Virus record (IMG/VR): IMGVR_UViG_3300011008_000025
Coordinates: 31,036 to 95,035 of that record
DNA: 64,000 bases
Direction: 5' to 3' (one strand)
From: a virus
Taxonomy: Duplodnaviria; Caudoviricetes
Of this stretch, positions 1,796 to 3,270 are shown in pieces. How positions within the stretch are numbered: the first letter of the stretch is position 1; every line of letters begins with the position of its first letter. The notes under the pieces are model-generated. The model saw nothing but the letters and a program-made list of their open reading frames with translations. It made no database searches and was not told where the DNA came from. The position numbers were made by a program, and so were the translations under genes.

Positions 1796-1815
1796 TGTGA
1801 ATACCCTAATTCTGA
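1796..1815 (-). promoter_or_regulatory. operator copy 1 (TCAGAATTAGGGTATTCACA, non-promoter variant)
   Basis: Near-exact match to the 20-bp motif present 8 times. Confidence 0.75.
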
Positions 1816-1842
1816 TTTTATGATCCGAAAAGAAAAGGACGG

Positions 1843-2775
1843 TTAACCGCCCCTTTCTTTTACGGCTTCCAAATAACATTGGTAGGCGTGCAAAAGGTCG
1901 TTTTTGTGTGTCGTGCTTTTGACTCCGAAGAAACGAACAATATGACTGGCGTCCGCCTGGATGCCATATTTTTCGGTAAAAGCCCGGATCTCGGCGAAGG
2001 CGCCGAAATAATTCAGGTCGCGGATGGATACCACAACCTCCTGGCCGATGGCGGCGCCGGCCTCCGTAATGGTGTTGGATAAAAACCGGGTTCCGATCGG
2101 CTTGTTTTTGGCGGAGCCACGCTTCACAAATCTGCGGTAAAAAGTGTCGCCGTCTGCCTTCTCCAGCGGGGCGGCGTTGCCGATCACGACCTCTGTCTCG
2201 GCGTATTCATGCAGCTTGCGGGACACAAAACCGTCGTCGATCATGTGGTTCCCGATCATAACGCTGCCGTCGCCTGAGAAGTATACCTCATTTTCTTTCA
2301 GAGTGCGGATGTCCTCGGCGCTCTGCCCCAGCCACGCCAGACAGTAGATGACCGGAAGCTGTGCGCTTTCGCGGTAGTTGCGGAGTTTGTTGCACACGAG
2401 CTCCAGATCGTTCTCTGTCAGCACAAGCTGTTTGGAAAAGGCGGGCGTCAGGGAAAAGTTGTACGTCTCCCCGTTTGCGATGGTCGGGTGGTCTTTTTCG
2501 TTGACGAACACGCCGTCTGTAATGCAGCGCCAGCGGACATACAGCTTGCCGTAATGAAAAATATTGCGGTAGGTCCTATAGGCAATAGTGGTTCCTTTTT
2601 CCTCGACGCTTTGATAGATCTCTTTTGTGCGTCCTGCGGCGACCAGTTCAAAATAGTCGGTGTTCAGCGGCTCCTCGATCATTTCCGCAATGCGCCCCAT
2701 GGAATAGGTGGCCTGCACGACGTCCGCTTTACTTAAAGATTCGATGAATTTTTGTTTGATCTCCGGGTTGAACAT
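1843..2775 (-). CDS. YopR/MrpR-like master repressor (catalytically degenerate tyrosine-recombinase fold)
   Basis: Start MFNPEIKQKFI after GAGGAGG. The N-terminus, LYVRW and LT.NDLE...NKLRNY segments resemble SPbeta YopR as recalled. Box I-like segment CLAWLGQSAEDIRTLK lacks the catalytic Arg; no HxxR. Confidence 0.75.
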   Translation of the reverse strand: MFNPEIKQKFIESLSKADVVQATYSMGRIAEMIEEPLNTDYFELVAAGRTKEIYQSVEEKGTTIAYRTYRNIFHYGKLYVRWRCITDGVFVNEKDHPTIANGETYNFSLTPAFSKQLVLTENDLELVCNKLRNYRESAQLPVIYCLAWLGQSAEDIRTLKENEVYFSGDGSVMIGNHMIDDGFVSRKLHEYAETEVVIGNAAPLEKADGDTFYRRFVKRGSAKNKPIGTRFLSNTITEAGAAIGQEVVVSIRDLNYFGAFAEIRAFTEKYGIQADASHIVRFFGVKSTTHKNDLLHAYQCYLEAVKERGG

Positions 2776-2800
2776 GAACATTCCTCCTCGCATTACAGGT

Positions 2801-2843
2801 ATTATACCATATGTAAGCGAGTTTGTCAATACCCTATTTCTGA
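2801..2843 (-). promoter_or_regulatory. sigmaA promoter of the repressor gene fused to operator copy 2
   Basis: TCAGAAATAGGGTA-TTGACA-N17-TATAAT with extended TG. Confidence 0.9.
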
Positions 2844-2844
2844 T

Positions 2845-3204
2845 TTATTCTGTTGGAAATGGAGATTGTACGCGCCGGGCTCGTCCCACACGGATCAGGT
2901 CGTTCCATGTAAGATGACCGAGCTTGCGGCTGAGCTGCGACTGATTGATGGTCTGCGTCTGTTCGGTCAGCGCGATGCTGTCCTGACGCAATCCGTTTTC
3001 CTGTTCGGCACTGATCACAACGTGCGTCGGCAGATAGCTGGCCTTGCCGACACGGCTGGACATCGGAATGACTTCGATCGTGGGACTGTGCTGATTGCCC
3101 GTGTTGTTCTGCGCGATGATCACGGGGCGGATTCCTCCCTGCACACTGCCATTCACGGTTAGGCTGGCGACGTAAACGTCACCGAAATCCGGTATTCTGT
3201 TCAT
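2845..3204 (-). CDS. mazF: MazF/PemK-family endoribonuclease, no adjacent antitoxin
   Basis: GDVY..L...GSVQGGIRPVIIAQNNTGN..SPT...LPTHV...GL..DS..L.EQ..TI matches the NdoA/MazF pattern; catalytic Arg present. Confidence 0.92.
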   Translation of the reverse strand: MNRIPDFGDVYVASLTVNGSVQGGIRPVIIAQNNTGNQHSPTIEVIPMSSRVGKASYLPTHVVISAEQENGLRQDSIALTEQTQTINQSQLSRKLGHLTWNDLIRVGRARRVQSPFPTE

Positions 3205-3227
3205 ACAACGACCTCCCTTCGTGTGTA

Positions 3228-3270
3228 ACTATAGCACATTTGCGCCGATTTGTCAATACCCTAATTCTTA
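3228..3270 (-). promoter_or_regulatory. sigmaA promoter of mazF fused to operator copy 3
   Basis: TAAGAATTAGGGTA-TTGACA-N17-TATAGT with extended TG. Confidence 0.85.

Follow-up and report, generated by a model that had tools for sequence, protein, structure and literature searches.

A putative lysogeny-control module was identified near the left end of the 64,000-nucleotide stretch of Caudoviricetes DNA analysed here (hereafter the window). The window covers bases 31036-95035 of the 95,035-bp IMG/VR record IMGVR_UViG_3300011008_000025, which is 81% complete according to CheckV. On its minus strand, mazF, the gene of a predicted MazF/PemK endoribonuclease, is followed by open reading frame (ORF) 310, which encodes a MrpR/YopR/SroF-like protein (Table 1). 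The two genes have about an even chance of forming a lysogeny-control module, a phage-borne version of the sro-MazF circuit of phages phi3T and SPbeta in which MazF is encoded by the phage. Established here are the identities of MazF and ORF310, their promoters, a family of repeated 22-bp boxes, a conserved gene order and the distribution of UACAUA sites; binding of the box by ORF310, the cut site of phage MazF and its influence on the lysis-lysogeny decision are inferred from them. Other loci fetched for comparison are given L-numbers, among which L008-L010 are close and L011-L013 distant relatives.

The mazF product matched the Pfam family PemK_toxin (PF02452) at 3.3e-21 (76 bits, cut-off 23.1), the PHROG "MazF-like growth inhibitor" at 3e-24 and the Bacillus, B. 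anthracis and S. aureus MazF structures at 6e-21. A six-frame search of the record with PF02452 also recovered mazF, at 75.4 bits. The AlphaFold2 (AF2) model of the protein (predicted local distance difference test, pLDDT, 90.6) has an SH3-like barrel fold, and in Foldseek it superposed on B. subtilis, S. aureus and B. anthracis MazF with template modelling (TM) scores of 0.88-0.90 and root mean square deviations of 1.6-1.9 Å. A first-pass annotation of this DNA, made from the letters, had noticed that the catalytic Arg is kept and that the Thr position reads Ser, and the alignment agrees, R26 being placed on catalytic Arg25 of B. subtilis MazF and S49 on Thr48. Position 49 alternates between Ser and Thr within the MazF subfamily, so Ser49 is a natural conservative variant. 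All of 23 divergent phage MazFs have Arg26, and each has either Ser or Thr at position 49. In the window protein the EQ segment that contacts bases is retained, and the chain ends in a conserved basic tail, VGxARxIQSPFP. In comparison with two relatives whose ORF310 is 80-82% identical, mazF, ORF310 and the small upstream gene ORF72 are all under purifying selection, with mazF the most constrained (ratio of nonsynonymous to synonymous substitution rates, dN/dS, 0.02-0.06 at dS 0.2-0.55). The intact catalytic residues and the strong purifying selection suggest that phage MazF is an active RNase.

These results bear also on the possibility, raised in the first-pass annotation, that phage MazF is a decoy. 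A catalytically silent or decoy protein would titrate host MazE or poison host MazF dimers, and the cut-site pattern described below would then reflect host MazF only. The host may encode MazEF, the phage protein is about 40-48% identical to characterised cellular MazFs, and Thr48 is replaced by Ser, all of which would suit a decoy. The conservation of Arg26 and Ser/Thr49 across the 23 divergent phage proteins, the kept EQ segment, the low dN/dS and the close superposition on active MazF speak against it and make this explanation very improbable. The phage protein has its fold, catalytic Arg and Ser/Thr hydroxyl in common with chromosomal MazEF (EndoA/EndoAI, ndoA) of B. subtilis, S. aureus and Listeria. 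Unlike the chromosomal gene, mazF in the window is phage-borne, linked to a repressor gene and transcribed from its own promoter with no MazE-type gene upstream, and its product has the basic C-terminal tail.

The gene downstream of mazF had been called MrpR/YopR-like from the letters, and a profile and structure comparison of ORF310 with YopR found the homology. Only 14 relatives of the protein were recovered by an exhaustive search of 1.8 billion representative proteins. A phmmer search of the PDB matched it to YopR/MrpR structures at 2e-4, and the profile of its family matched YopR at 1e-11 over positions 1-286, nearly the full length, and phi3T SroF at 5e-10, at about 26% identity between ORF310 and YopR. 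In a relaxed tblastn search of 50,697 phage records, all 13 matches to ORF310 were yopR genes of the SPbeta family. The Pfam domain MrpR_N_CB scored 16 bits on ORF310, below its cut-off of 27; it is annotated on the relatives P0007, P0009, P0010, P0013 and P0015 and is above cut-off in the proteins of L073 and L080. The AF2 model (pLDDT 85, predicted TM score 0.82) showed the two-domain tyrosine-recombinase fold, with core-binding (CB) and catalytic (CAT) domains. Its top six PDB matches in Foldseek were YopR, MrpR and phi3T SroF, and its TM score of 0.63 to DNA-bound SroF was ahead of XerA, Cre and lambda Int. Catalytic positions were located by aligning SPbeta YopR to the family and reading the alignment against Table 3 of PMC10516654. 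Only two of the seven recombinase catalytic residues are kept, the acidic D155 and the tyrosine Y298, while Arg I is replaced by W148/L149, Lys by G175, His by R252, Arg II by N255/Y256 and W/H by V285. An active integrase was therefore rejected, because the catalytic residues are absent. Profile matches, fold matches and the loss of catalytic residues together place ORF310 in the MrpR/SroF family, and it is predicted to be an integrase-fold repressor of this recombinase-derived family, without recombinase chemistry.

MazF of B. subtilis, Listeria and S. aureus cuts at U^ACAUA and leaves TACATC, TACATG and TACATT uncut (10.64898/2026.08.06.743204). The distribution of this site was analysed separately for the early arm, the minus-strand genes left of about window position 21,000, and the late arm, the plus-strand genes right of it. 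In the 52 kb of early-arm sense strand, a third-order Markov model predicts 8.6 copies of TACATA, and 30 are present (z 7.3). No other of the 4096 hexamers is so strongly over-represented on this strand, the Shine-Dalgarno hexamer coming behind it. The antisense strand of the early arm has 7 sites against 13.5 expected and the late-arm sense strand 10 against 7, and the uncleavable TACATC/G/T are at expectation. Counts of the five-base UACAU and the three-base ACA were uninformative, the signal coming from the six-base site only. The excess lies in synonymous choices: when synonymous codons were shuffled within early-arm genes, the 25 coding sites observed were reached by none of 300 shuffles (mean 9.0, maximum 17), and in the late arm nine sites were observed against a mean of 4.7 (11/300). 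A sense-strand excess of UACAUA was also found in L011, L012, L019, L045, L073 and L086. Judged from these statistics of the phage transcripts, phage MazF probably cuts U^ACAUA, like its Bacillota relatives and the chromosomal MazEF enzymes.

The coding sequences of mazF and ORF310 contain no UACAUA, an absence that in this phage alone is not significant (about 0.7 sites expected). When 13 lineages were pooled, a single site was found in 17.3 kb of mazF and mrpR-like coding sequence against 12.7 expected (P ~4e-5), the expectation being drawn from the flanking sense strand with its 85 sites in 116 kb. None of the mrpR-like genes in these lineages carries the site. Between mazF and ORF310 there is only one UACAUA, at 2810-2815, in the spacer of the second promoter of the locus (P2). 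RNA read through from the first promoter (P1) would include it, and P2 transcripts would begin downstream of it. L008 and L010 conserve the site, and the distant L013 has it at the same place in the spacer. A related observation concerns positions 3221-3226, just past the P1 -10, where the window has TACACA and both L008 (1598-1603) and L010 have TACATA; these relatives thus have a MazF site at the very start of the mazF message, which the window phage has lost.

The first-pass annotation had proposed MazF as an RNase that either biases the decision or defends the lysogen. The cut-site statistics provide strong circumstantial support for the RNase idea, and defence of the lysogen is a separate rival. 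In that rival, MazF would be a prophage defence or superinfection-exclusion toxin, placed in the immunity region for expression in the lysogen and having no part in the phage's own decision. The PHROGs class of the MazF family is "moron, auxiliary metabolic gene and host takeover", MazEF protects Bacillus against phages (10.1101/2023.04.27.537455; PMC10769878), mazF is driven by a promoter of its own beside the repressor gene, and MazF is missing from several MrpR-like lineages, as cargo would be. A defence role leaves unexplained the 3.5-fold load of cut sites placed in the phage's own early genes through synonymous choices and the avoidance of the site in mazF and repressor genes across 13 lineages, and PADLOC gave no match. 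It is regarded as fairly unlikely. A parallel is lambda cI-rexAB, along with other defence genes that are co-expressed with prophage repressors, where a toxic or abortive function likewise adjoins the immunity repressor and expression in lysogens is probable. Unlike in lambda, the phage's own early genes are here enriched in the target site of the nuclease, which points to self-regulation over defence against other phages.

Both genes of the module have a strong promoter. P1, upstream of mazF, matches the consensus at 11 of 12 positions (TTGACA-17-TATAGT, 3256-3228) and P2, upstream of ORF310, at all 12 (TTGACA-17-TATAAT, 2829-2801), each with TG before the -10. Only 23 nt separate the P1 -10 from the mazF ATG, and they include a GGGAGG ribosome-binding site, so no gene fits in between. 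In L008 and L010 the box and both hexamers of P1 are conserved with a variable spacer, and the P2 stretch is 100% conserved. The first-pass annotation had thus read both promoters correctly, including the lack of room for a MazE gene between P1 and mazF. It had also assigned them a shared operator. The sharing is real, but the putative operator is not private to the locus. It is an asymmetric 22-bp box with the consensus ATCAGAAWTAGGGTATTGACAA, present in 7 copies in the window against 0.35 expected and in 11 copies in the whole record, all co-directional with local transcription, and its copy at 1795-1816 cannot be a promoter. The P1 copy has A in place of C at box position 3 and overlaps the ORF72 stop.

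Two kinds of box copies can be distinguished. Six of the 11 are fused to TTGACA, and in five of them (P1, P2, 16896, 21270 and one in the 31 kb upstream of the window) a good -10 follows at 17 nt, giving a good promoter; the sixth, at 7437, has a weak -10. The remaining five have C for G in the hexamer and no -10, and they lie downstream of a promoter copy. The copy at 1795-1816 belongs to the second kind and is conserved in place in L008, L009 and L010. It is a candidate repressor-dependent roadblock. Its use as the promoter of tRNA-Leu was considered and rejected, since there is no room (4 nt) and no -10. One layout is present twice, at 21270-21378 (+) and in L103 (G000:C1:9874-9982, -), and consists of a box-promoter, a short hairpin, a promoter-less box exactly 87 nt downstream and then the first gene. 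The arrangement resembles a promoter combined with a roadblock, or else a unit with two operators.

The box also varies with the MrpR-like protein. The box of the window was found in the close relatives L008-L010 at P2 and just past the ORF310 stop, and in no other fetched locus. L011, L012 and L013 each possess a different repeated element of their own at the promoter of mazF, of the mrpR-like gene or of both, and again just past the end of the mrpR-like gene; the L012 box, ACGAATTTRCCTAT, is fused to TTGACA in the same layout as the box of the window and differs in its core. Monomeric SroF recognises a non-palindromic box of 26 bp that recurs at many sites (10.1101/2025.11.27.690993), and MrpR occupies SPBRE at about 10 promoters, among which is the promoter of the MrpR operon itself (PMC10516654). 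The length and asymmetry of the box and its co-variation with the MrpR-like protein fit this published binding mode, suggesting that ORF310 binds the 22-bp box, most likely as a monomer.

Another explanation is that the box extends the promoter or works as a UP-type element, or that a different phage regulator, for instance an activator or a sigma-like factor, recognises it, with ORF310 binding DNA otherwise. The fusion of six copies to TTGACA, five with a good -10, and the score of ORF310 below the MrpR_N_CB cut-off would agree with this. Five copies, however, have no usable -35/-10 and lie downstream of promoter copies. Two promoters with 11-12 of 12 consensus matches, those before the recombinase gene Int285, carry no box, so the box is not simply the promoter consensus of the phage. 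The variation of the boxes by lineage, in step with divergent MrpR-like proteins and always flanking that gene, and the fit of a long asymmetric site to the monomeric mode of SroF (10.1101/2025.11.27.690993) also favor an operator. A non-operator role of the box is accordingly considered unlikely.

The linkage of the two genes is conserved. At least 13 lineages of uncultured phages, all distinct in sequence, have MazF next to an MrpR-like gene, and the linked loci span at least three MazF subtypes. A survey of mazF-mrpR synteny in 80 IMG/VR phage loci fetched with a MazF profile found an MrpR-like ORF on the same strand within 2.1 kb in 22, and 24-67 nt downstream of mazF in 15. The triad ORF72-mazF-mrpR is kept in four divergent lineages; in L011, L012 and L013, which keep this order, identities are 24-30% for the MrpR-like protein, 54-61% for MazF and 22-31% for ORF72. 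In L018, MazF is followed by a DndB-like gene and then by the MrpR-like gene; as YopQ/SroE of SPbeta is also DndB-like, this locus is an sroE-sroF pair headed by mazF. Other arrangements of phage MazF were noticed as well. The L029-L063 group (for example L032:5028-5606) represents another MazF clade of 103 aa with no MrpR-like neighbour, in which an 88-aa ORF, possibly a downstream antitoxin, starts 1 nt past the mazF stop. In L064, L082 and L089 the MazF domain lies within ORFs of 268-317 aa.

MazF had been described in the first-pass annotation as an orphan. It is at most a putative orphan: no known antitoxin family was found, and the positionally conserved ORF72 lies directly upstream. No MazE domain of the AbrB type (PF04014) or ribbon-helix-helix (RHH) type (PF01402) was detected in the 81%-complete record, and a regular-expression search for the MazE/AimX/YosL helix motif gave nothing convincing among the small ORFs. 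The organisation also differs from a canonical mazEF operon: no MazE gene lies upstream, and the consensus promoter P1 separates ORF72 from mazF. The position of ORF72 is kept in L008, L010, L011, L012 and L013. The protein is basic (isoelectric point, pI, 9.4), its dN/dS is 0.05-0.09, and a profile search of 5.8 billion proteins found it in five clusters only, all of this phage group. It had no match in Pfam, PHROG, PADLOC or ESM Atlas. A complex prediction with two MazF chains and ORF72 scored 0.00 with an uncertain partner fold, which is no evidence either way. The acidic ORF84, whose relatives are confined to L008, L010 and L011, had no family match in Pfam, PHROG or PADLOC. Next to it lies ORF78 (3740-3976, -), a very acidic (pI 4.1) coiled-coil protein of phrog_4068, which might be a DNA-mimic or antirepressor candidate; its relatives occur near mazF in otherwise different loci (L008, L011, L012, L019-L021 and the L029 group).

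The same neighbourhood raises the possibility of an addiction pair stabilising the prophage, in which ORF72 or the MrpR-like protein neutralises MazF and loss of the prophage frees it. ORF72 is a small protein that evolves fast and keeps its place immediately before mazF in four lineages; the pair common to all lineages is MazF and the MrpR-like gene, often 24-67 nt apart on one strand; and the order P1-mazF-P2-ORF310 would give an excess of ORF310. The basic charge of ORF72, its separation from mazF by a strong promoter and its limitation to near relatives do not suit such a role, nor does the lack of MazE, AbrB-type or RHH domains in the record. Cut-site enrichment in the phage's own early genes is not predicted by addiction, and Bacillus YopR homologues work without a MazF partner. 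An addiction pair is thus judged to be quite improbable. In toxin-first type II operons such as higBA and mqsRA, the toxin gene likewise precedes the gene of a DNA-binding protein with an extra promoter of its own; unlike there, the second protein is here a 310-aa integrase-fold repressor with a phage-wide regulon, and toxin binding is not indicated. B. subtilis MazF is reported to be a non-lethal regulator owing to its six-base specificity (10.64898/2026.08.06.743204), so unneutralised low-level MazF is conceivable.

In phi3T and SPbeta, SroA and SroB of the repressor operon free host MazF, which degrades most phage mRNAs, spares the sro operon and favours lysogeny, and AimX and YosL inhibit MazF for lytic growth (PMC10769878; 10.1101/2025.11.27.690993; 10.64898/2026.08.06.743204). 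A comparable circuit can be proposed for the window phage. ORF310 would bind the box at 11 places, among them the five promoter copies including P1 of mazF and P2 of its own gene, and the five copies downstream of promoters could act as roadblocks. MazF would cut early transcripts, which carry UACAUA at about 3.5-fold over expectation. The coding sequences of mazF and the repressor are free of the site, and P2 transcripts would start downstream of the sole intergenic one. With early genes loaded and these coding sequences clean, MazF would destroy early lytic messages and spare the repressor message, and this destruction would favour lysogeny on infection and strengthen repression once the lysogen is formed. 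With a six-base specificity, MazF could be tolerated with no classical antitoxin present. For lytic growth an inhibitor of MazF would be expected, with ORF72, ORF84 or another small protein as candidates. In its complete form this would be a self-contained, two-layer lysogeny lock, with the repressor at 11 boxes, MazF as post-transcriptional co-repressor of UACAUA-loaded early messages, clean mazF and repressor messages, no need of a classical antitoxin in the lysogen and a small protein of a new family (ORF72 or ORF84) in the role of AimX/YosL. This complete form is offered tentatively, as somewhat more likely to be wrong than right.

The module has several features in common with the sro operon (yopMNOPQR = sroA-F; PMC10516654, PMC10769878, 10.1101/2025.11.27.690993). 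The repressor has the same integrase fold, a dead active site, a C-terminal Tyr and an N-terminal MFNxEIK motif, and its gene is the last protein gene of a one-strand string that includes a small YopP-like tyrosine recombinase. As in SPbeta/phi3T, a long asymmetric box is situated at about 10 promoters of a phage of more than 100 kb, the repressor's own operon included, and the repressor operon is functionally tied to MazF, here as read from the genes. Differences are also evident. MazF is encoded in the operon and not recruited from the host via MazE-binding SroA/SroB, the box is fused to the -35 hexamer, ORF310 is only about 26% identical to YopR, and the host is probably of the gut Clostridia type, not Bacillus. 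No AimR, YopM, YopN, YosL or DndB-like SroE was found in the 81%-complete record; for AimR, no match to SPbeta YopK/AimR was obtained at E<=1, and a divergent receptor is possible.

Several points weigh against a lysogeny-control role of the phage MazF, beside the lack of significance of site avoidance in this phage alone. The cut site is assumed from characterised MazFs that are about 40-48% identical, and the enrichment of UACAUA could be aimed at a host MazF. The gene string 7412-1843 is not depleted of UACAUA as a whole (3 sites). All box promoters would be repressed together, and the model leaves the expression of MazF and repressor in the lysogen unexplained. Four MrpR-like lineages and SPbeta itself have no adjacent MazF, which makes MazF an accessory part. 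A scan of 185,579 species genomes found the tail-type MazF in only one, which leaves lysogeny of these phages with little documentation.

Table 1. Features of the module and of other sites in the window (window coordinates)
Feature	Position	Strand	Remarks
mazF, 119-aa MazF/PemK endoribonuclease (predicted)	2845..3204	-	R26, S49; conserved C-terminal tail ending QSPFP
ORF310, MrpR/YopR/SroF-like tyrosine-recombinase-fold protein	1843..2775	-	predicted master repressor, putative box binder
P1	3228..3271	-	box variant 3250-3271 fused to -35 TTGACA (3256-3251), 17-nt spacer, TG-TATAGT; -10 ends 3228
P2	2801..2844	-	box 2823-2844 abuts mazF stop, fused to TTGACA-17-TATAAT
ORF72, basic 72-aa protein, no known family	3268..3486	-	directly upstream of mazF; candidate MazF partner/antitoxin
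ORF84, acidic small protein, pI 5.0	3483..3737	-	stop overlaps ORF72 start
Box, third copy, ends TTCACA, no -10	1795..1816	-	26 nt after ORF310 stop, 4 nt before tRNA-Leu
Box fused to TTGACA, weak -10	7437..7458	-	head of leftward gene string ending with mazF and ORF310
Box without promoter, ends ATCACA	16632..16653	-	upstream of tRNA-Gln, 264 nt downstream of promoter copy 16896
Box fused to TTGACA-17-TATACT	16896..16917	-	promoter copy
Box fused to TTGACA-17-TATACT	21270..21291	+	head of rightward late-gene arm
Box without promoter, ends CTCACA	21357..21378	+	87 nt downstream of 21270 copy, past a hairpin
tRNA-Leu(UAA)	1714..1790	-	first of three tRNAs downstream of the mazF/ORF310 module
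Two further tRNAs	1426-1501, 1349-1422		downstream of tRNA-Leu(UAA)
Int285, small tyrosine recombinase	4916..5773	-	same leftward gene string; positional analogue of YopP/SroD

The phage is probably of the temperate type, with a genome of about 117 kb and a host group among gut Firmicutes, Clostridia-type rather than Bacillus. The 31 kb preceding the window contain DNA polymerase, primase-helicase, NrdD and integrase among minus-strand genes, and the plus-strand arm contains the large terminase, tape measure and virion proteins. The GC content is 50%, promoters are of the sigma-A type and ribosome-binding sites are strong GGAGG. Temperate features are the integrase genes and the classification of one relative's record as provirus. 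The host assignment is weak because the single bacterial genome match of the tail-type MazF is on a 3.2-kb contig of a Lachnospiraceae metagenome-assembled genome. On this contig (L105:2520-3194), the MazF gene is followed within about 200 nt by an apparent 3' part of a tRNA or tmRNA gene with T-arm and acceptor end, as would be expected at the border of an integrated element. Megablast and strict tblastn against the 50,697 phage records gave no match, a single-protein pattern search of IMG/VR found none, and a LexA-box scan gave 1 site against 1.5 expected.

Besides ORF310, the phage possesses three tyrosine-recombinase genes, which is unusual for one phage. They code for proteins of 364 aa (26584-27678, +), 285 aa (4916-5773, -) and 372 aa (L103:3697-4815, -), matching PHROG integrases at 1e-31, 2e-39 and 3e-32, respectively. 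Int285 has equivalents in L011, L012 and L020, and its SPbeta counterpart in position, YopP, is annotated as site-specific integrase and matches Pfam Phage_integrase. The two box-less promoters before Int285 are situated at 5899-5871 and 5804-5777. Between them, at 5833-5850, a 7-bp inverted repeat (ATTACGC, 4-nt spacer, GCGTAAT) was found, which may be the operator of a different regulator. The approximately 200 nt between tRNA-Leu and tRNA-Thr (1512-1713, -) gave no Rfam match at gathering score and no convincing ORF.

In the literature, no paper was found on a phage-encoded MazF linked to an SroF/MrpR-type repressor or on the loading of phage early genes with UACAUA, and the published survey of SroF covers 321 Bacillus SPbeta-like genomes only. 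The parts and the logic are already known from SPbeta/phi3T; the arrangement with a phage-encoded MazF differs. That the master repressor operon of Bacillus arbitrium phages is linked to host MazF is a recent finding, about which debate continues. The loci described here have repressor and MazF hard-wired in phage genomes, in many uncultured lineages far from Bacillus, and carry a cut-site signature, loaded in early genes and avoided in repressor and mazF, that can be read from the sequence. If the proposed role is true, SroF-type repressors and MazF-based control of lysogeny at the RNA level would be widespread and not a Bacillus curiosity. The module would then clearly exemplify a virus that has evolved, as a means of regulation, sensitivity to a nuclease of its own, and it would offer a compact, host-independent system for testing how MazF biases lysis versus lysogeny.

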